A stretch of 64,000 nucleotides of DNA from Perna viridis (lineage: Eukaryota), in the NCBI GenBank assembly GCA_037379345.1, contig CM074511.1, positions 47,808,862 to 47,872,861 of the forward strand, read 5' to 3'. The notes under the pieces are model-generated. The model did not search any database. It worked only from the letters and a program-made list of their open reading frames with translations, and had not been told where the DNA came from. The translations under genes and the position numbers were made by a program. Of the stretch, positions 44,601 to 59,600 are shown piece after piece (the first letter of the stretch is position 1; each line of letters opens with the position of its first letter).

Positions 44601-47600
44601 TTCATATCAATGTGTTTATGTTAGCTGGATTCCTACAACTCTAGTGGTATACAGAATAACAACAGTTTTGAAGTCAAGACAGAAAAAAATCACTGTTAGA
44701 GGCTGTCTATATAAATATCATGCAGATCCTATGATATGGGTGGCACAGGACAAATTTTATCCCATTGATTTTTTTTTTTGTTTCAATGTAATGTATATAT
44801 CATATGAATGTAAAACAATATAAAATTTGTTTTAAATCAACAATGGGTGGCTCGGAAAATGTTTTTTAAGTTCCCTAACAAAGCAACTAAATTTTGCTCA
44901 AATTAAAGAGTTATTTCCCCTTCTTAAATGAATTCCAATTTATTTCTCTTTAATGGTAGCAGTTAATCAAAAACCAACATTCACCTTTGGAAAAAGGATG
45001 CATTTGTGATATGAAACGGGTCAAAACTTTTTGAAAACAAAATTTGTCATGTGCTACTCACAGCATGGTTTTTGCATGGACACCATCTTAACATGGCAAG
45101 ATGTGATATTCTGTCAAGATGTTCAAAACTGACTTCTCATGTTATCATGTAAAAATGATAAAGTTGCCAGTAATATATATATTGAGTAGGAAAGAGATGG
45201 AGTTGTACTCAGCATCGAAAAGTAAATTGTATCCTCTTGTCTATTTTATACCTATTTGACTGCTTGTGTGGTTGTCTAAAAAAATTTTCCCCATTTCTTT
45301 ACTAAACTATGGACATCCAGAACAAAAATAAGCATAGTTTATGATCATTTTTATCATTCTACAAGTTTAACTCAAGATTAAAATTATAAAAATAAACAAG
45401 ATAAAAAAAAATAATTCCTGAACTGTCTCTTGTCTAAGAGACTCAAACTTTGTGCCTTGTATGTTCTTTATTTCCTGATCACAACTCACCATAAAGAAAT
45501 GAACAACATGTGGTTTAAGAGGCAGTCCGAGGTTCTTCATGATATTATACACTCCATCATAGCTATTCCCTTCTATGTATTCCTCTACCAGATCTACCAG
45601 ATCATAGATGGACTTAGTCACACAACTTCTCAGTAGGTTTGACATCAATGAAGAAACACTTCCAAAGAAATGCTCCATTTTCTCTGTTCTCAACTCCTGG
45701 AAATGTAAAAAAAAAATTGGCATGTTATGTTGAAAAAAAAGGGATGGCAAAATGTTCAAAATGGCCTTACTCGAAAACTACATTTGGGAATTTACTGAAA
45801 ATCCAACTTAACCTGTATTTTATGGTACTAAACAACTGTGCACAGTTAAAAAAATTCAATGAAGCATTCTCAAGTTTAATCTTGCAACCATTGGGGATGA
45901 CAAACAGACAGACAGACACACAACTTTTCAGAGGGTATCAAATAATACCTTGGCCCATGCTGTGGATAGGTATAAAAAATGATTAGGGTTTAAAACAAGA
46001 AATATTGTTTGTACTTGACCTTGTAATTCATACCTCAATATGTGTAACATATTAATGTTCTTTGAACTTTCAAATAATTCAATATTTTCAGTTAATGACT
46101 TCTGCATTGGCAAATTTTTTGGTCAAAAGCTTGTTGTATTGGCCTAAGGACAGTTAAGATTATAGAGAGAAAAAATACTTGAATTCATGCTTTTCTTCAA
46201 ATGACCCCAGAAATGTCCCCAAATAACTTGTTGACATCAGAGAAACAATGTCATTTTGAATGATGGTGTCATTTCTTTGTTTTTTTTCCGTCATGGTGTC
46301 CTCAAGTGTAAATACAATGTACTTCCATTACATACCTGACTGTCTTGTGGCATCCAATCTTCTATAGCATCCCTGAGATTCTCAACAACTTCACAACACT
46401 CATGTAACCATTTCTCTTCAAACTTTTTAGCACCAAACTCACTTGAATTTTTTACATGTTTATAAAATGTTTCCATGGTTACAGGCATTTCTCTCCTTAA
46501 TCCTGGAAGATCTATAAGTCTAAAATCTCCATACCTGGAATGTAAAAATATAATGATATTCAACCTTAATTAGAAGCATTTAGGTATGGTCTAATAATTT
46601 GGAAATACAGAGTCTGCCAGACAGTGGAACAATGTAAAACATGCTATATTTAGAGAAAGTATGATAATCATAGCAGCCATTAATTGAGTAGATTATCATA
46701 AAACATTACCTAGTTTCAAACTCATATAGAATTGTATACATAACAGGATGTGTAATATAGAGATCAGTCTTCATGAACTCTCTCATCTCATTCACCATGT
46801 CATGCCATGGATATCTAAAACGCCCAGCTGAATTGGATTCCTGGAAATGAAAAAAAAAAATATTTTGAAATATTTTAAAAGGTACTTAAGTAACACAGGA
46901 CCAATATTACATAAAATAGATATGTAGATTGGTTGTGTAGTGTTTGTTACCATTATTTCACAATGCAGCTAACTCCAAATTTCAATCAGCTTTATGGTAG
47001 AAAAAACTTCATGAGAAGCCTCTTGGTACACAGAGTTTCCCTTGTGCCTTGTCTTATTTGTACAAAAATCTAAAAGGACAAAGGTACACTTAGTCTTGTC
47101 TGATTGTACTCTTCAAAAAGTATGAAATCTACAAACCTTAATTGACATAGGTACACCAAGTTCAGTTTATGCCAACTCGTTCTAAAATATATGATATATT
47201 GTATACAAACCTTGATAGGCATGGGTAAACAAAGTTCAGTTTATGCCTACTCGTTCTAAAATATATGATATCTTGTATACAAACCTTAATTGGCATAAGT
47301 ACACCAAGTCTTTCTTGTTCTTCCTCATCCTGTAGTATATAATCTAACATCCCTTTCTTTATGGCATATCTTCTATCACCCTTCATTTCCTTTTAACAGA
47401 AAAAAATGTTCTTGTTGCATATTCCTGTTTATAAATATATTAATTTGGACCTCCTCTTACTGATACAAAATGTAAAGAATAAGATTTCTAATTTCTCTCT
47501 ACTAAACCTTAAGGAAATAAATAATAGCAGCAGAGGTAAATTAAATAATTATCTTGTAAGACATAGTATATATACACTCCTAGCAGAAGTTTTTTAAATA

Positions 47601-50600
47601 AATTGCTATGTGTCTCAAATGTCGTCCACTATTGCTAAAGTTTAAAGAATAAAAAGATAAACATCGAAGTCCAATTACTCTCAATAATAGGATCAGGTAA
47701 ATATGGTGTCAAACCATCATACAAAATTCAATAGCTGGTCTCACTGGAGTTTGGCCACCAAGTAACTGGTTGGAAAACAGTATGACCAATAGAAGGATAG
47801 ACCAACACCATTATTTACACAGGCAAATGTGCCACACATGAGAATCATATGGTTTGCATCATACAATTACCATATGAATCGAGCACCATATGATAATCAT
47901 ATGGTTATCTTATGATAATCACATGTTTTTCACAAACATATGATTATCATATGTTTTCAAGCCCATATTATCATATGAGAATCATATGATAATCATATGA
48001 CTACCACATGATAAATATATGATTTTCATATGATTATCATATGAATCAAGCACCATATGATTATCACATGTGGCACATTTGGCTGTGTAGACCTCTCTCA
48101 GGGGACCAAACTAAACCCTAAACTTACCACAAAGAAATCTTTGGCAGCTTCAGGATTATCAAGACGTAACTTTGTTGGTACAAACTTGTAAATGCCTTGA
48201 ATTGTACCTTGTTCAAGAGGAGATACCATCTCATTTCCTATAGATTTGTCTATCAAGCTGTAATACCTGGAATAAATACAATTAGGAAGAATGAAAAAAA
48301 ATTCAGTATGTGAAAGTTCAACCATTTCTATTTATGTTTTAGCTACCAGGTGTTTCTGTAAATAGGCTGCATTACAACCTATGTTTAATTCTTATTTAAC
48401 TGAACATATATATGGAATTGAAATTCATATAATATTATATCGTATTTATCTACGATAGCTCAGTTGTAAGATATTATAATAAACCCTAAAATAGCCTAAT
48501 TTTTTATTCTGATAGGTTGAGAATGGAAATTAAAGTAAAAATAACCCTCAACAAATCAATATTACGGCACCAAAGTCTAGTGCACTAAGAATATGTAGCT
48601 TGTTTACAGCTATACCTTTGTATATCTTTTTGCTCAGGTGTTGGGGGTCTGGATAGACCATGTGTAGAAAAGTAAAATGGAGGAAACTCTACTTCTAATA
48701 TACTCTTGCTATATTCATCATGTAATTCATAAAATTCATTTTCTTTTGTGTCTGTTCCATCTGCTTTCTCCTTCTCTACACTGTTTTCTTTTTCTTCTTT
48801 AAAAAGAATAGTAAATAGAACGTTCATAAAAAGATGAAAAATATGTCAAAAAGAACACAAACATGAAGTAGCATCCAGTGTCATGTTAGGTATACCACCA
48901 CTCAGATAGCAATCCTAAAAATCAGGAAGTTGATATCAGACATTCACTGAAGTTGGTTACTCTGTGCCCCATCTACATTAAACCACACACCATATTTGCA
49001 TTCAATCCATCCATTACAAGCTGAGATAGTTGTAGCAAAATATGGACAGATGGTTCTAATAAACAACCCATTTGTTTATAATGAAGTCTAATAATTAGAA
49101 TACAAACTAATATGACATAAGCAATGATGTTATTTATAAATGTCTATTAGTTTTAAGTACAAAAAATATACAATTAGCAATTTATCAAAGGAGAAAATAA
49201 AATATTGGATATGGTATTTAGAATCAACATTGCCTATGCTCTGAATCTCTGAGTTAACATCTCAGGAAAGTGAAACACTTTCTTATGATTTTTTTAACCA
49301 AATAGATTCCATTCTATTAATCCCTACTGAACTACATGCATAGTAAACATTATTTCAAATCCTAATGAGTGACATACCAGCTTCCGAAGGTCTCTCTGAT
49401 ATGGTGTCCATATCATGTAGATATAAACCAGACGGAGGTTTACCACTGTCAACACTCTCAGAATAAATACCAGACTTACAGATTTCTTCATCAATACTTC
49501 CATTGTGAGGGTAGTCACCATTGCTGTAATAATGACCTGAAAGAAAAAAATACGTCATTCCATCTCTCAAGCAGTAAAACACAGAATTAAATGGAGTTAT
49601 TCCCCTTCTTTCAAAATTATGTGCATTGGCATAAATATCAAACAAAAAAGAATAGCTATTGCTCTCTATCAGCAACATATGTACAACCTGATATAGAAAG
49701 GAAAAATAGATAACTTAATTATGAATTCAACAATTTTGACAGCCAAAGAAAAAGTATAGCCTTTTACTGCAATGTTGGGAATTAAAAACATTTTTGCCCT
49801 TTGATACCCTTTGCACTAGTAATTGTGTCAAACCCCTATCAACTTTAATGATCTATACAACAAATCAACAACTTAATCCTGTTCAAACCATTCAAATTAT
49901 TCTCTTTGTACCAACAAATAGCTGAACTTAATTCAAGTCATTTTAAACATAGATTGAACCCAAAATATAATGTGGTAATTGTACAAAACACTTTTGAACT
50001 TATTTTGGGTGCAGTTCATGGTACAGAAAAAATATAAAAAGAACTTGCTCAGATACTGCATATATGGTATAGATTTAAAAGTAACCCATGACATATGAAT
50101 TATCTTAGATGTATTTAAACACATTCCATTTTACTTAAGTCAGTTTGAATAACTGAAATAACAGAACAATTCTGAACAGTTAAAAGTCAAACACTTATTC
50201 ATTCATTCTTAAGAATTTTCAAATTTAATCAATTTTACTTAAGTAATTACTGATGTACATAGATTCATTTTATGGCAATACTTAATACAGTGAACTCTTT
50301 CTCAACCAAACCCTTTTTTGACTTGGTTCAGTTTAGACAGGTGTTTGGTTTAGACAGGTTTCTTGGTTTACCAAGGTTCAAAATACATTTAAATTTATGT
50401 AGACATTTTTAAAAGTGCTTGTTTTAGACAGGTTTGGGATTATTCCAGGTTTGTTTTAGACAGGTTTGGGATTATTGTTTGTATTATACAGGTTTTGAAT
50501 AATTCATGGTTTGGTTCAGACAGGTTTTATTCAGGTTTAAGTTCAGACAGGTTTTATTGTGTAAAATGTAATTCTAATAGCTGAGTTCTTGGAATAAATG

Positions 50601-53600
50601 TAAATGACATCCTTCCTCAATTCTTTTTAAAGTGAATACTAAATCAATTTGCAAATATTTTAAGAGCTTCATTTAAATTTGTGTTTGTTTGTTGGGGTTT
50701 AACGTCCGAGCAGCAATATTTCAGCTATATTCAGACGATGAACATGAAATTAATGATAAAATGAACATGAAATGATGATGAAATGAAAAAGGGATGGGAC
50801 ACAAGGATAATGGGGACGACAAATTTTGATTGCCACTGGAAATAGGGAGAGGTAGGTAAGGTCAGGCAATTTAGCCTCCTGTGGCGGAGCCCTATCGTTC
50901 CTACTCCGGGAGAATACCACAGTAGGGTTTTTTAACGTGCAAGGAACGTGGCATCTTTCCCAACACGATGCACCACTATGGTTTGCGGTCAGGTTTTCTG
51001 TATTATAGCCTAACAACCCCAGCATGTAACACGCCAGGGGTACCCCATTCCACCACCTGGGGCACACATCCCAGTTGCTCTGTGGGTAGAGCGCCCTAGG
51101 CCCCGTCTAGGGTTCTCAGCACTATTTAGTCGCCTCTTACGACAAGCTTAGCGCTGCTGCAGGCCTATTCTTTTAACACCCGGACCTGCACGGGGATTTA
51201 AATTTGTGAGACACACATAATTATGCAAAGAGTTTGAAATTTGAGAAAACAGGCACTATAAAGTATAACAATGAATCATCTATAAGGATCATAACATGAA
51301 AAATACAAAGAAGCAAAATTGGGTGAAGTCTTTAATGCACAAACAAAATAAAATTTGAAATGAAAGAAATTTAACTGGTTGCTATTTTAAAAGATTAATT
51401 TTCAGAAATGTCTATCATATTTCATTCAAATATACACACAACTTGACAAAATTACCTGTAATTACATGTTTTATTGATACTTAGGTGATATGAATTATTC
51501 AAAACATAAATAAGTAGATGGGAAAATCTATACCTTCTCACACACTTATTATCAAGTAAGCCTACCCGGTTGGAGGGAATCAAAATATTTTAAACTGAAT
51601 TTGAATGCTTAAATATATACCATATTATATACTTAAATGTTAAGTTTGTTGCATAAATTATGTTTTTACTATCAGTTTACACATCCTTCATTGTGGAGTA
51701 ATAGGGGTATGGTTGAATGTCAATAGATCATGTCACAAAACAAGTAGCTTTGTATATTCACTACTTTTTCATTCCACCAACCACATTTATTTACTGGTTT
51801 ATCAAGGGTTCTGTTTCACTGTATTTTCAAAATTAAAGCCATATAAAATAAAACCCCAACGTCAATCAATTTTGATATAATATTGAGGATAGGTCTGATT
51901 TTTTATCAGACTGTAGTGAAACAATGTCAAGGACAAACACATATACAGTCATTTGCAAAGACTGAAAATGATCACGTGTACATAATTCTTAAAATCTGAA
52001 ATTAGGCCTCTTCATATTATCCTGTTAGGAAAATATCATTCCCAAAACCATTTTTTTTCATTCTGGAAAAAAGCATGCCAAAAAGTGTCTTTTTTTCATA
52101 CTTTGATCACAACATGTTTTGTCAAATCGGTTTAAATTTCATTGCAAGCTTAAAATAAATCTAAGTTGAACCCACAACAACTAGAATCAAGAGGCCAGAA
52201 ATTTTCTACCCCTTTAAAAATCATGTATTTACAAACACTTGAATATTAATCTGGAGACAAATGGACAAATACGGAATTGGTCATTACACCCAGTATTACG
52301 GAGATACATGGACAAGTGTGGAATGGGTCATTACAGCAAGTGTTCCAGAAATACATGGACAAGTGTGAAATGTTAATTAGACCCATTGTTCCAGAGACAC
52401 ATGGACAAGTATGGAATGGGTCATTACACCTAGTGTGCCAGAGATACATGGAAGAGTATGGAATGGCTCATTACATCCAGGGTTCCAGAGATACATGGAC
52501 AAGTAAGGAATAGATTATTACATCCTGTGTTCCAGAGATACATGGACAAGTAAGGAATAGATCATTACACCCAGTGTTCCAGAAATACATGGACAAGTGT
52601 GGAATGGATCATTACACCCGGTGTTCTATGTTATCCTAGTAACCTCACATACCATGCCAATAAATTGGCTCATGCCAGTCAATCAACTCATACATTTATC
52701 ATAACAAATGTTTATTCCTACTTTAAAATTTTCAACTCTGTCAGTTAGTTCAAATAGCTCATGTTTATTGCACCCCAAATAAATAGTGACAAAGAGTTTT
52801 GCCTTATCAGTATAATAATGTTCTTTGTTAGATATTGCCACTTCAAATTCGACATTTGTCTTTTTCAAAGAAAGAATAATTCCTTGAATTCTGAATATTA
52901 ATGATATATCTGAAGTTTCTCCTTCACAGAATATCACCAATGTAAACAACTACAAGGCTGATGTTTAAATTTCTCTGTGTATTATTTCTATATCTATCAA
53001 GTTACAATTTTTATTGTTTACAAAGCATTCTTATGTAGAAATAAAGGTGATTAATATAAATTCCTTCCATAAATATCACAGTAACAGAAGGAGAAGATCT
53101 GTCTTCCATACATTTATATTACATTTTGTAAAAACTTTGTCATAGTTATGTATAGTTCTATTGACACTGTAACTATAGTGTTCTCTACACCTTTTGAAAA
53201 GGGCTGTGTAATCCAGGTAAAAAAAGGGCACTTTATTATTAATTTATAAAAGCAAATTAGAAGGCACATCATGCAAGTATTAACATTTTTTAAGGTAAAA
53301 TGAAGGAAAAAGGCAGAGCACTAATAGAACCTATAAAAAAGGGCAAAAGGGGAGGGGGCAGGGTGGTGGGCGGTGTTGGCGGTTCTTGTTCTACTGAAAC
53401 AATCTGTAGCCAATACTAAACTACACAGTCATTTGAATATGCATAATAACCAAAGAAAAAGAGCCAAACTGTTGTTGCAATATTGCTGACATATTTTATT
53501 TCATTTACATAAATACACTTTATCATAGATAATACTCCATTAAACATGTAAAATCATCAAAGAACAAAACTGCTGTGTAACTTTCTTTATAATTAGAGAT

Positions 53601-56600
53601 CCCTGCTTAGAGTATAACTTACTATTCTACAAACTTGGGACACCTATTAGGTGCTGAAAGTACATGGATCAATTGTAATTAACCAAAATCAAGTAGTTTT
53701 TAAAACTTCAATCTATTCAACAATAAAACTCTATACTTCTCAATAATGTTTACACTCTTACTTTGATTAATACATTTTTAAAATCATGTAAGACACTCTC
53801 TCCTGTTATTACATTCGATCTGAAAAGCTGAGGGAAAAAAAGGTGGAACAAAGGCTTCATTGTATCTAATCTTCAGATATAAACCTAGTCAATATCGAAG
53901 GTAAATATATTTACTCATAAGTTTTTAGCCATTCTTTTATTACATTGAAAAATCCAATTTATTTTCCTAAGCATATCCAAAGATAAACATGGGTGCTCAT
54001 TACTTGTTAACAAGTCCAATTTTCTATCTTTATAGAAAGGACTTTAATCCTAATGGTGAAAAAATTAACTACTTTCCCTTCAGAATGTGATAAGTACTTT
54101 TACAATAACTCCAAACTTACATGATGTTAAATCAATGCTATGATTTTCCTGTTTTCCTAACAAATAATGGGATGTTTTCCTTGCCTAATATTTAAACATA
54201 ATGCCTATATAAATACATGCCATTACTATAATAATTTTCTCCAATATAAATTAATGTCAAATATAAAATCAAGTAGGAAAAGTTAAAAGTGAATAAACAC
54301 TATACAATAATTAATTATGTTATTTACTTTTCTAGGTGGTGTTAATTTTCAATTCTAATTCCAGGAATTTGATTTACTGTTAGATAACAAAAATGTCAAA
54401 AACTGTCAGTCAAACTGTACTTAATTATAACAATTAAGCTATAACATTTAATCTATCTTCCATTGGTGCTAAAATATCTCTGTATTGCATACACTGCGAA
54501 TATGAAAATTATGTTGTCAATTGAATTATTTTATATATTATAGAGTAATCCAGGTAGTTTTCTACTAATATGCAGCTCATGGGTCAATTTTTTGCACAAG
54601 AACTGTCTTGCAGCTACACCTAAATGCATTAATACCACCCAGATTTTAAACATCAGACTGACATCTTACTGTTAAGTTAGAATAGATGTCCATGTGATCA
54701 GACTGACATCATACCGTTCAATTAGGACAGATGTTCGTATGATAAGAAGGACATCTTAGTGTCAGTAAAGACACATGTCCTTGTAATCAGACTGACATCT
54801 TACTGTTAAGTTAGGACAGATGTCCATGTGATCAGACTGACATCTTACTGTTAATTTAGGACAGATGTCCCTGTTATCAGACTGACATCCTACTGTTCAG
54901 TTAAGACAGATGTCCGTGTGATCAGACTGACACTTTACTATTCAGTTAGGACAGATGTCTGTGCGATCAGACTGACATCTTACTGTTAATTTAGGACAGA
55001 TGTCTGCATGATCAGGCTGACATCTTACTGTTAAGTGAGGACAGATGTCCATGTGATCAGACTTACATCTTACTATTAAGTTAGGACAGATGTCCACATG
55101 ATAAGACTGGCATCTTACTGTTAAGTTAGGACAGATGTCCCTGTTAGCAGACTAACATCTTACTGTTAAGTGAAGACAGATGTCCGTGTGATCAGACTGA
55201 CACTTTAATATTCAGTTAGGACAGATGTCTGTGTGATCAGACTGACATTTCACCGTTCAGTGAGGGCAGATGTCCTTGTGATCAGACTGACATCTTACTG
55301 TTCAGTAAGGACAGATGTCCATGTGACCAGTCTGACATCTCACTGTTCTGTGAGGACAGATGTCTATGTAATCAGACTGATATCTCACCATTCAGTTAGG
55401 ACAGATATCCATGTGATCAGACTGATATCTTTCTGTTCAATGAAGACAGATGTCTTTGTGATAAGACTTGTATCTTATCGTTTGGTAAGGACAGATGTCC
55501 ATGTGATCAGACTGACATTTTACTGTTCAGTTCAGACAAATGTCCATGTGACCAGACTGACATCTCACCGTTCTGTGAGGACAGATGTCTATGTGATCAG
55601 ACTGACATCTCACCATTCAGTTAGGACAAATGTCTATGTGATCAGACTGATATCTTTCTGTTCAATGAAGACAGATGTCTTTGTGATAAGACTTGTATCT
55701 TATCGTATGGTAAGGACAGGTGTCCATGTGATCAGACTGACATCATACCATTCAATTATGACAGATGTTCGTATGATAAGGACATCTTAGTGTCAGTAAA
55801 GACAGATGTCCTTGTAATCATACTAACATCTTATTGTTCAGTTAGGACAGATGTGCATGTGATCAGTCTGACATCTTACTGTTCAGTTAGGACAGATGTG
55901 CATGTGATCAGTCTGACATCTTACTGTTCAGTTCGGACAAATGTCCAAGTGATCAGTCTGACATCTCACCGTTCAGTTAGGACAGATGTCTATGTGATCA
56001 GACTGACATCTCACCATTCAGTTAGGACAGATGTGCATGTGATCAGTCTGATATCTTACTGTTCAGTTCGGACAAATGTCCAAGTGATCAGTCTGACATC
56101 TAACCGTTCAGTTAGGACAGATGTCTATGTTATCAGACTGACATCATACTGTTCAATTAGGACAGATGTTCATATGATAAGAATTACATCTTAGTGTCAG
56201 TAAAGACAGATGTCCTTGTGATCAGACTGACATCTTACTGTTAAGTTAGGACAGATGTCCATGTGAACAGTCTGACATCTTACTTTTCAGTGAGGACGGA
56301 TGTCCATGTGATCAGTCTGACACCTTACTGTTCAGTTAGGACAGATGTCCATGGGGTGAGACTGACATCTTAATGTTAATTTAGGACAGATGTCTGCATG
56401 ATCAGTCTGACATCTTACTGTTCAGTTAGGACAGATGTCCATGTGATCAGTCTGACATCTTACTGTTCAGTTAGGACAGATGTCTGTGTGATCAGACTGA
56501 CATCTTACTGTTAAGTTATGTGATCAGACTGACATCTTACTGTTCAGTTAGGATAGGTGTCCATATGACAAGACCACAATCTTAGTGTCAGTTAAGACAG

Positions 56601-59600
56601 ATATCAGACTGATATGTTTCTGTTCAATGAAGACAGATGTCTTTGTGATAAGACTTGTATCCTATCGTTTCGTAAGGACAGATGTCCATGTGATCAGACT
56701 GACATCTTACCGTTCAGTTTGGACAAATGTCCAAGTGATCAGTCTGACATCTCACCGTTCAATTAGGACAGATGTCCATATGATTAGACTGACATCTTAC
56801 TGTTAAGTTAGGAAAGATGTCCATGAGATCAAACCAAAATATTACCATTCAGGTAACTACTAGCTTCACTCTGTATTCCTGATGAGTTGATTGGTGGAAG
56901 TTTGGTGTGGTTCTGGTACCCATTACTGGTACTATAATCTGGTTTCTGTGTTACCCTAGGTGATAATCCTAATCTCTCAACTGTACCACCAAGATTATCT
57001 TCTTTTAGATACTCATGTAGACTGAAGAATAACAAACATGTCAGCTACTTGCTCAACAAAACTGTTTCTATTGTTTAATCAACTTTAAAAAAAAAATAAA
57101 ATGATCAACATTTTTTTAAATGAAGAATTTATAGTAAGCAATATAAATTTTCAAGATTTGTAAGAATTGGAAATACATCATAAGGTTTAATATAATATTT
57201 GTGAATGTTTTCCTTTTTGTATATAAACTGTGTTTATTAAAACACTATTTTGTTACCTTTTGCGCCTAGGAACAGGAAGTGACTGTCTCAATCTTGGATC
57301 CTCGGGGCTGCTTGGTCTGAATGGTCGAGGGGTAAGGAAATAACTCTCCTCTGTCGTGAATGCTTAAATTGATAAGCAGAAATCAGTGATTACTTATTTA
57401 ACTCTAAGAAAAGACCAACATTCATACTACTGTTGTGACATACTGAAGAACCAATACAAATGCCCTAGTCATTGGGAGATTATCACTTACATTCATAACA
57501 AATAATTAGCAGGTTATTTCTCTGCATCTTATATTTACCAATCAGGAAATCATTCAATACTGGATACAGTACATTTGAAAAAATTATTTGCTGTCTGCAC
57601 CAAGAAAAATTATTAGAATTAAAAGCTTTTATTCAAAAGGTGCCATGTTAAAAGAAGCTTGTGTCAACAAACTGTGGACAATGTAAACTTTCATATTGAG
57701 ACCACTATTAAAAACTTAGTTATAAAACAAATAAGCCCTATATAAAAAAAAACAAATTTTTCAAACCAGTCTTTCATCAACTGTACAAATATAACCAATA
57801 AAAATTAAACTAAGAATTTATGTCCTATATTTTTACTCTATGAATGGAATGTTGTGGATATGGATATTCATCTATAATCACAAATAAAAACTCCCTGTAT
57901 GTTCTCATGTAATTAAAGAGATCAGTTTCACTTAAGGATAAACTAGGATCATAAAATTAATGTACATGTAAATTATATTGTAGTGCATGTATGATAAAAG
58001 ACATAGGAATATTTGTCCATGGATTACATTAAATAGGAAAGTTACAAACTTACAAAGTAATGAACAGAAAGGAACGATTTCAACAAGGCTCGTCAATAAT
58101 TTTTAACTTTTTAATAAAAGTGATTAAATATTGTTCCTAGCCTTGCTTTGTTGGTAAGGAGTAATTTGATCTATTATATTTGCTTGTTCCTTTTAACACC
58201 TGGTATATGGTAAGAAAATTAAACTAATAAATTGGGAAAAATCAAACAAATTCTCTGAAGTTAAAAGGTTCTTGACAATGGCACAAATTTTGACCAATCT
58301 ATGGGGAATTTATAAATTGGAAATATTTAGTACATATTCTAATTCATAGAATTAATGTCAAGATGGTAATAATCAACCTGCATCATTGAGCAAAACACAA
58401 AATGATGTGTCCAATATTACAAAACAAATTCCTAGCTAGGGACTAAAACCAGCATCCAACATCCTGCAGCCCCTCAACTACTGGGGCAATAATTAACATA
58501 TAAGGACTTTAATGAAGGTCACAAAGGAAGAACTGAAAGAGTCATATTTACTTTCCATTGATTTGTCAGAAAATCAGGCTATGTCATTGTAACTAAATCA
58601 TGGGCATGTCTAGGTCTTCATGCCTGTCTAAGTCAAATTAAGCTTGAAATGGTTGTAGACTGATACAATCAAAGGTTTTAGACTGTCCCTGATCAGGGGT
58701 AAAATGAGAAGGTTCAGATCCAACCTAAGACCTGCTATAAAAAATATATAGGTACTGCTTTCGTAAATAAAAAAAGTTTTTAAGACCCACACATATACTG
58801 AAGTGCCCTTCAATTCAAATGGAGTTGTCAGTCATTATTAATCTTTATGAAAAAATCTTATCCTAATAATTATAAACACCAACTAATATATCATATCTGG
58901 GACAAGTGGCGATATCACTTTCAAGTGCAGTTTAGACAAACATATCTAAATATTAGTAGAGGGTCCTGTCCATGGAAGCATTGTTTGGTTATGTTTTTTT
59001 TATACACTCATTTTTGCTATTTAGTAGGTCCAAGTTTTCCTATTTCATAAAAAGTAAATTTATTGTTCAAATATTTGAACAGTGCTAGGACATAAAAGTA
59101 TAATTACCTCTGAATGAGAAGCCAAATGATTGAAACATAATAAATTAATGGTAGTCAAAATGGGAAGCAGAAGATCAGAATATTTTTTTTCTGTATTTCA
59201 CCATTTAGAATGATGTTTTGTAGTGTACAAAAAATAATTAATTAATATAATAATTAACCTTAGTAACCTTTACTCAAATACTGTTAACATTAATCTTGCT
59301 CCAATACTTAGCCATTACTGAGTAGAGAAGGGTCAATATAATAGCAAATAATACTATATTTATAAAGGATGAAGTGTAGCTGATACCAAACATGTCCCCT
59401 TTGAACATACAGTGTGGCCCTTCATATTTTACAATGATTGAAAGTAAAATTTAGAGAATGGCCTATTTCAATGAAATGCAGAATTTAAATGAGCCTTTCT
59501 TTAATATTCCTTGACAGAAATTCAGATTTCAGAGAAACATTGTCATAAATTCTGTTATAAATGGAACTTTACATGCAGGGCCTTTAATACAGACTAGTCA

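Follow-up and report, generated by a model that had tools for sequence, protein, structure and literature searches.

The question raised by this locus is what kind of head a retroposon carries when it does not begin with a tRNA, and whether that head acts as DNA or as RNA. The locus lies in a stretch of 64,000 nucleotides from contig CM074511.1 of Perna viridis (the window). An earlier note, made from the letters alone, had claimed here a retroposon with a pseudoknot-like 5' head of an uncharacterised kind. The analysis indicates a known element type with an apparently undescribed RNA structure and a surprising distribution among retroposons and viruses. The element is a high-copy LP-type SINE whose first ~70 nt comprise a predicted pseudoknot, supported by covariation, and a conserved hairpin. 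The favoured reading is that these ~70 nt form a barrier to 5'-3' exoribonucleases, which would set and protect the RNA's 5' end; the probability of this reading is put at roughly 0.4.

The SINE, its published head, and its copies

The minus strand at 51195-50684 is a SINE of 512 bp with a 13-bp target-site duplication (TSD) on both sides, and every string quoted in the earlier note was located on that strand where it had been placed. The element starts at 51195, immediately after the 5' TSD CACAAATTTAAAT (51196-51208), and is followed by the 3' TSD (50671-50683). It ends in a (CAAA)n repeat (50684-50693), preceded by a LINE-like 3' tail ending in GGACGTTAAACCCC (50694-50732). This tail resembles the tails of scallop SINEs and, weakly (17/21 bases, E = 3), the 3' end of a LINE at the loci L328 and L692. 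The word GCACGTTAAA (50931-50940) also occurs in the bodies of Nin- and Snail-domain SINEs in the supplement of PMC4758252, a similarity of this 10-base word only. The longest stop-free stretch is 118 codons, with no long ORF, and the SINE body includes T runs of 5 and 4.

ARAGORN detected no tRNA gene (0) in the SINE, no B box was found in its first 200 nt with one mismatch allowed, and the head region shows only two loose A-box matches. A tRNA-derived SINE (SINE2) is ruled out by these results. The non-tRNA head claimed earlier is thus upheld, and the statement that neither an A nor a B box is evident holds for the B box, with the two loose A-box matches to be added. Searches with Rfam returned nothing over the motif, either for the window (E up to 10) or for ten related loci (E up to 5), so that no characterised Rfam family was recognized there.

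As a sequence, the head had been published. LP-SINEs, in which LP stands for LINE-promoter, were described from gastropods and bivalves by Matetovici et al. 2016 (PMC4758252), and over their first 70 bp they agree with the 5' ends of Nimb-17_LMi, I-3_DR, and RTE-9_CPB. Section 10 of that paper proposes the head as a putative promoter, calls for experimental work, and draws a parallel to the ingi/L1Tc ribozyme; the parts of the paper drawn on here give the head without RNA structure, covariation, assay, or viral occurrence. Judged by its sequence, the head of the window SINE is the published LP head of mollusc SINEs and Nimb/RTE LINEs, and calling it uncharacterised was a mistake. The scallop heads with "Nimb-17 homology" (Fig. 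S2 of PMC4758252) show by eye the core CCCCCTGCAGGTAGGG...AAGAATTGTACCTGC...TCGTAAGAGGCGACTAA, as in the window head, and a compensated knot (GCAGGTA with TACCTGC, also by eye).

The window family shares with the LP-SINEs and the pectinoid MESC SINEs, as far as these are presented in the parts drawn on here, a ~70-nt head common to LINEs, the same core, variable TSDs, a short tandem repeat tail, and the tail word GGACGTTAAAC. It differs in its body, which was not matched to any named family. By sequence, the window element has the testable features of an LP-SINE, namely the ~70-nt head shared with LINE 5' ends (scallop heads by eye; the LINE at L328), the terminal repeat, and variable TSDs, while the promoter activity of the head is putative. 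New relative to PMC4758252 are the covarying pseudoknot, a full-length LINE bearing the head, and the occurrences in 3' UTRs of RNA viruses.

A DNA search of the 723-Mb genome of P. viridis gave 6,478 candidates, and the 40 that were scored are full length with 94-100% identity. The exact head pattern matched at least 6,318 times, and its reversed control 0 times. Among 131 distinct heads from fetched loci, a selected and not a random set, 88 have both head and tail, and 62 of these 88 have a TSD of 8-15 bp. Copies end in (CAAA)n or (CAAT)n. Between TSD and head, no base is present in 12 and one base in 40 of the 62 copies with a TSD; the single extra base is G in 28/40. In 140 heads fetched with a query lacking the flank of the window, the base preceding the head is G in 109, as it is in 29/34 metagenome copies. 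The first head base is C in 106/140, and conservation is at least 89% from the next base onward, apart from one subfamily site. No conserved sequence was seen upstream of the head. The 5' end of the SINE is precise to 1-2 nt and slightly ragged.

An examination of 47 variant heads and of 30 RNase H loci in this genome turned up no autonomous LINE with the head, and the heads near RNase H ORFs are SINE insertions. Four SINE copies stand head-to-tail with a 504-bp period at L623-L626 (G000:C1:9835989-9837543), and the three complete units compared are identical. At L002, L222, L605, L608, L614, and L672, SINE copies lie inside or beside one another, some head to head; copies in this group also lie within LINE remnants with RNase H.

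Structure and covariation of the head

The fold is an H-type pseudoknot composed of a 4-bp first stem (S1, or P1), a one-base loop L1, a 7-bp second stem (S2, the knot), and an A-rich loop L3 ending in AGAATA, after which GUCG-UAARAGG-CGAC-YAA follows. On the minus strand of the window, P1 pairs CCCG (51194-51191), starting from the second base of the element, with CGGG (51182-51179), and the knot pairs GCAGGTC (51189-51183) with GGCCTGC (51165-51159). L3 (51178-51166) consists of a variable part and the conserved AGAATA (51171-51166), which is predicted, from what is seen in H-type pseudoknots, to cross the minor groove of P1. The sequence-conserved hairpin, GTCG-TAAGAGG-CGAC at 51143-51129 and with the following YAA extending to 51126, is common to SINEs, the LINE, and viruses in the form GTCG-TAARAGG-CGAC.

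Covariation was evaluated with 13 heads, one for each family with a short loop (alignment A1); the alignment excludes families with long loops, decayed copies, and three loci with bulged or shorter knots (L320, L328, and L340). Every pair of the knot (7/7) shows compensatory changes on both sides, and 97.8% of the cells are paired. The covariation score of the knot is 0.668, against 0.192 in shuffles (0/500 as high) and 0.06-0.14 when the partners are slid. In P1, 92% of the cells are paired and 2/4 pairs show compensatory change. The six viral loci alone form 41/42 knot pairs, a number reached by 1/720 permutations, which is the true assignment; in this test the 5' strand of the knot was anchored by P1, independently of the knot. 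Within the P. viridis genome, one knot pair is A-U in 5,544 copies, G-C in 16, G.U in 25, and an A x C mismatch in 46, with ~0.2 G-C copies expected if the two sides were independent, and the 16 G-C copies count as one compensated subfamily event, not as 16.

On this comparative evidence from sequences, the pseudoknot is real, and its position at the element end is as claimed earlier. Its length needs correction from 8 to 7 bp, since the U at 51190 is the one-base loop L1 (U in 13/13 rows of alignment A1, A in L328) and its would-be partner varies across families. The nested folding energy of the first 200 nt is not above chance (z = -1.76, 12/200 shuffles as good). Chance could therefore not be excluded from the window copy alone, and the support for the fold comes from covariation.

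The 18-nt hairpin is invariant in sequence. Its pairs never vary and it served as the search key, so that covariation is silent on it. The invariant core of the heads in alignment A1 is GTCGTAARAGGCGACYAA plus AGAATA, the invariance of the latter being partly built in because AGAATA was included in the search patterns. In several SINE families from metagenomes, L3 contains insertions of 60-110 nt.

The outer stem proposed to enclose the hairpin is present in the window copy, where CAGCGCTA (51156-51149) pairs with TAGTGCTG (51124-51117) over 8 bp with an internal loop, matched by 4/500 shuffles. In 19/20 heads tested it is no better than in shuffles, and it is absent in several; it was rejected as a universal feature and is optional among families. 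The later hairpins (51116-51060; CCCTAG/CTAGGG, GCTCT/AGAGC, and CTGGG/CCCAG) exist in the sequence as proposed. They are specific to the family and not common to others, and were likewise rejected as a universal feature.

Occurrence in other retroposons and in RNA viruses

The suggestion in the earlier note that the same motif stands at the heads of other invertebrate retroelements proved right. Besides the scallop heads, a scan of metagenomes revealed at least 120 loci, including several other SINE families with the same core. The head also occurs on one LINE. In this LINE (L328), the head leads a 5' UTR ahead of ORF1, an open frame of 521 codons that contains cysteine-histidine knuckles; endonuclease and RVT_1 domains are found in a further ORF. 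The 3' end combines the SINE-like tail mentioned above with (ATTCC)n. From this layout, L328 is called a full-length I/Nimb-like LINE.

L328 was recovered from the GTDB, where 5/15 matches have the head (L316, L318, L320, L326, and L328). Its place is close to one end of a bacterial scaffold, and it is taken for host DNA; L318 and L326 have their heads within low-complexity, animal-like DNA. With these surroundings, a bacterial occurrence was rejected for L318, L326, and L328, which are interpreted as host or chimeric DNA. The regions L318:1-450, L326:3500-6000, and L328:4977-10042 represent contamination of reference assemblies of bacteria by animal-type retroposon DNA with low-complexity runs, and the intact LINE sits near the end of a symbiont scaffold. 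Very short elements at L118 and L326 combine the same head with a different tail and end in (GAT)n or (GAA)n, ends that we take to be RTE-type. Their tails fit tail exchange between LINE clades.

Among 2.9 million viral contigs, the exact core gave 11 matches, 7 with the whole motif and 4 without. The latter (L244, L246, L248, and L251) have no knot and were rejected as chance matches. A looser pattern together with the covariance model added L340. This was the one new virus from the loose viral patterns, which gave mostly chance matches in phages; the covariance model was run on 148 sources, and L465-L599 were scanned by descriptor only.

Seven RNA-virus-like contigs from six viruses (toti-, tombus-, and tetra-like) carry the motif. 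Matches to RdRP_4 were found in L245, to RdRP_3 in L250, to RdRP_3 and a nodavirus-type capsid in L247, and to RdRP_3 and an S-domain capsid in L340. L242 and L249 encode a Peptidase_A21 capsid and are two records of one virus with a shared junction. L241 has a long ORF without a Pfam match, whose resemblance to RNA-virus polymerases in the Atlas is a lead only. In 7/7 of these contigs (L241, L242, L245, L247, L249, L250, and L340), the motif is in sense orientation, ~5-190 nt past the last stop and near the 3' end. L241 has a second, tandem copy whose knot strands are compensated and which is truncated where the contig ends, and L340 has two degenerate tandem copies.

It is highly improbable that the viral occurrences are assembly chimeras or retro-copied fusions of virus and SINE, and that the motif is restricted to retroposons. 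Mixed samples are the source of most of the viral contigs, chimeric host DNA bearing the head does occur in bacterial assemblies (L318, L326, and L328), and conservation in the lineage of L245 is without confirmation, as the search for relatives returned none but itself. Such an origin is at odds with the uniform placement in sense past the last stop and with a junction repeated in two separate records (L242 and L249). Moreover, no SINE-type terminal repeat follows the viral motif, the sequence after it in L242 ends in a base-paired 3' terminus, and the duplicated copies have diverged yet kept their pairing.

Since RNA viruses pass through no DNA stage, it is as RNA that the knot and the invariant hairpin must act there, and the location in viral 3' UTRs shifts the reading from a promoter towards a fold that defines or protects a 5' end at the RNA level. 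One further contig is from a DNA virus: the full motif in L243 is intergenic in a 212-kb contig, ~150 nt ahead of a long ORF, and may go back to an old insertion of a retroposon into this large viral genome. At L243:4950-5160, a near-repeat of 12 AT-rich bases flanks a 210-bp stretch that holds the motif.

Possible functions of the fold

In the favoured reading, the SINE or LINE would be transcribed from an upstream or an internal start by Pol II, to which the internal T runs point by arguing against Pol III. An Xrn-type nuclease would then trim upstream or decapped RNA and stop at the P1 base. The tail would be recognised by a reverse transcriptase of the Nimb/I type, which would copy the full-length RNA, and new copies would begin at P1. 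In the viruses, the same fold would yield a protected 3' subgenomic RNA, and through template switching the module would be passed among LINE clades, SINEs, and viruses.

This reading draws on exoribonuclease-resistant RNAs (xrRNAs), which are generally found in viral 3' UTRs and require pseudoknots according to the part of PMC10321173 drawn on here. The plant-virus xrRNAs treated in the corresponding part of PMC12397905 halt Xrn1 precisely at the P1 base; the SINE ends, with no or one extra base in 12/62 and 40/62 copies, match this behaviour and are counted in favour of the barrier. Two features of the xrRNA class were observed here: the location behind the last ORF in the 3' UTR in 7/7 RNA-virus contigs, and a first pseudoknot stem at the presumed protected 5' end, seen from the SINE ends and covariation. 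Near counterparts are the coremin xrRNA (xrRNA-C) and the pseudoknot xrRNAs of plant viruses; coremin is described in the passages used (PMC10520033, PMC10321173) as a 4-bp hairpin whose loop pairs with a spacer, followed by a second hairpin that it requires. The short 5' hairpin with loop-spacer pairing, the second hairpin, the viral 3' UTR site, and the end at the P1 base are alike. The LP head differs in its 7-bp canonical knot, its sequence-invariant second hairpin, and its presence in animal retroposons, and its resistance to Xrn1 is hypothetical. The coremin class consensus (YGAD loop, CUAC spacer) is absent from alignment A1, and no Rfam xrRNA model matches.

Several observations count against the barrier. 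The H-type frameshift pseudoknots of BWYV, MMTV, IBV, and SRV-1 did not stall Xrn1, two of them even with an added hairpin (PMC10321173, in the part drawn on here); thus plain H-type knots fail to do so. The 60-110 nt insertions in L3 of some families should loosen a tight ring, and the knots of L328 and L340 are bulged or shorter. A hairpin of 18 nt with invariant sequence fits a catalytic core or a protein site better than it fits the second hairpin of coremin, for which the passages drawn on here report structural conservation only. In L1 and SVA, an extra 5' G was read as a reverse-transcribed cap (PMC2912911, in the part drawn on here). If the G preceding the SINE head is such a copied cap, the 5' end would be a transcription start. 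This evidence is equivocal, as the next base is no better kept (106/140) and the scallop heads have, by eye, no such G.

The head might instead be a self-cleaving ribozyme of an undescribed class, cutting just 5' of P1 and freeing the element from read-through transcripts, which we consider unlikely. HDV-like ribozymes do so for R2, RTE, and Ingi, with precedent at LINE 5' ends in the parts of PMC5786205 (six LINE clades) and PMC6765202 drawn on here, and section 10 of PMC4758252 raises the analogy for the LP head. Precise 5' ends with no conserved upstream sequence and the invariant core GTCGTAARAGGCGACYAA plus AGAATA would suit such an activity. With the HDV-like ribozymes of R2, RTE, and Ingi/L1Tc the likeness is a structured RNA at the extreme 5' end, common to unrelated families; the LP head has one H-type knot with a hairpin after it, in place of a nested double pseudoknot. 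With a loose HDV descriptor, no match was obtained at the 5' end of the head, and 12 heads showed no excess of matches over their shuffles (4/12 heads had no match, and shuffles matched in 2-9/10); the descriptor is too loose to discriminate. Together with the lack of an Rfam match, the missing fit at the 5' end rules out an HDV-like fold, and the earlier note, which could not fit the head to it, was correct. In Schistosoma mansoni, twister variants found at the 5' ends of RTE elements (PMC8501958, in the part drawn on here) offer a likeness as pseudoknotted RNA tied to the ends of non-LTR elements. The LP head has one 7-bp knot, not two short ones, and gives no Rfam match to twister, nor to pistol, hatchet, hammerhead, or HDV; no hammerhead core was found in the SINE. 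The strand order of twister also differs from that of the LP head. Linear RNA viruses do carry active ribozymes in their UTRs (PMC13725137), mostly in the 5' UTR or as circle-making pairs in the part of that paper drawn on here, and a cut where the viral 3' UTR begins would cost the genome its 3' end.

Just as doubtful is a role in binding the translation machinery or a polymerase. In viruses the fold would then be a replication element or a 3' cap-independent translation enhancer, in LINEs it would assist translation, and in SINEs it would tether the RNA to ribosomes that are producing LINE protein. A sequence-invariant hairpin suits contact with a protein or rRNA, and this role would agree with a capped 5' end as well as with long insertions in L3. 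The 3' translation enhancers of tombus-like viruses lie behind the last stop, and the motif is at this usual place in the tombus-like L247 and L340; such enhancers are mentioned in the introduction of PMC10520033. In L328, and in L243, the motif precedes a long ORF. A binding site leaves unexplained why P1 is at the very 5' base of every retroposon family and why the motif is duplicated in tandem in viral UTRs, and non-coding SINEs keep the whole fold. The published idea of an internal Pol II promoter acting as DNA alone, with pairing secondary, is quite improbable. The terminal position, the sharing between LINE clades (PMC4758252 section 10), the possible copied cap, and the combination of no Pol III boxes with internal T runs all agree with a promoter, which alone cannot explain the covariation or the viral occurrences. 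Promoter activity may exist alongside an RNA role.

With the nuclease barrier as the favoured reading and a ribozyme as the other form considered, the LP head would represent an RNA fold of a new class that defines 5' ends: across animals it would cap the LINEs of the Nimb/I and RTE groups along with their SINEs, and it would have been exchanged again and again with unrelated RNA viruses, in whose 3' UTRs it sits; we give this broader proposal slightly less than an even chance. A single RNA module would then be seen to pass between animal retroposons and several lineages of virus. In the open literature searched (subscription journals, Repbase, and Dfam lay outside the search), no description of the fold and no link of xrRNAs to retrotransposon ends was found. 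The LP head has stood since 2016 as a putative promoter, and it bears on how 5' ends are defined in non-LTR retrotransposons without Pol III heads. As the covarying fold is kept in RNA-virus 3' UTRs, the question is testable with a 70-nt RNA. If the fold blocked Xrn1, a host genome would encode an xrRNA by the thousands, and non-LTR elements would have a third means, in addition to promoters and ribozymes, of fixing their 5' ends.

Thousands of such folds in host introns and UTRs could shape RNA decay. The sequence around the window copy suggests that the SINE may lie in sense orientation in an intron of a multi-exon gene. Minus-strand open frames with splice-like borders occur at 46339-46530 of the window and nearby; no match was found for a 64-aa piece of these frames. 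Upstream of the SINE are two minisatellite arrays with units of roughly 40 bp (54700-56810 and 52270-52640), and at 47820-48080 an AT-rich palindromic repeat of ATCATATG units lies between near-inverted ends in a MITE-like arrangement.
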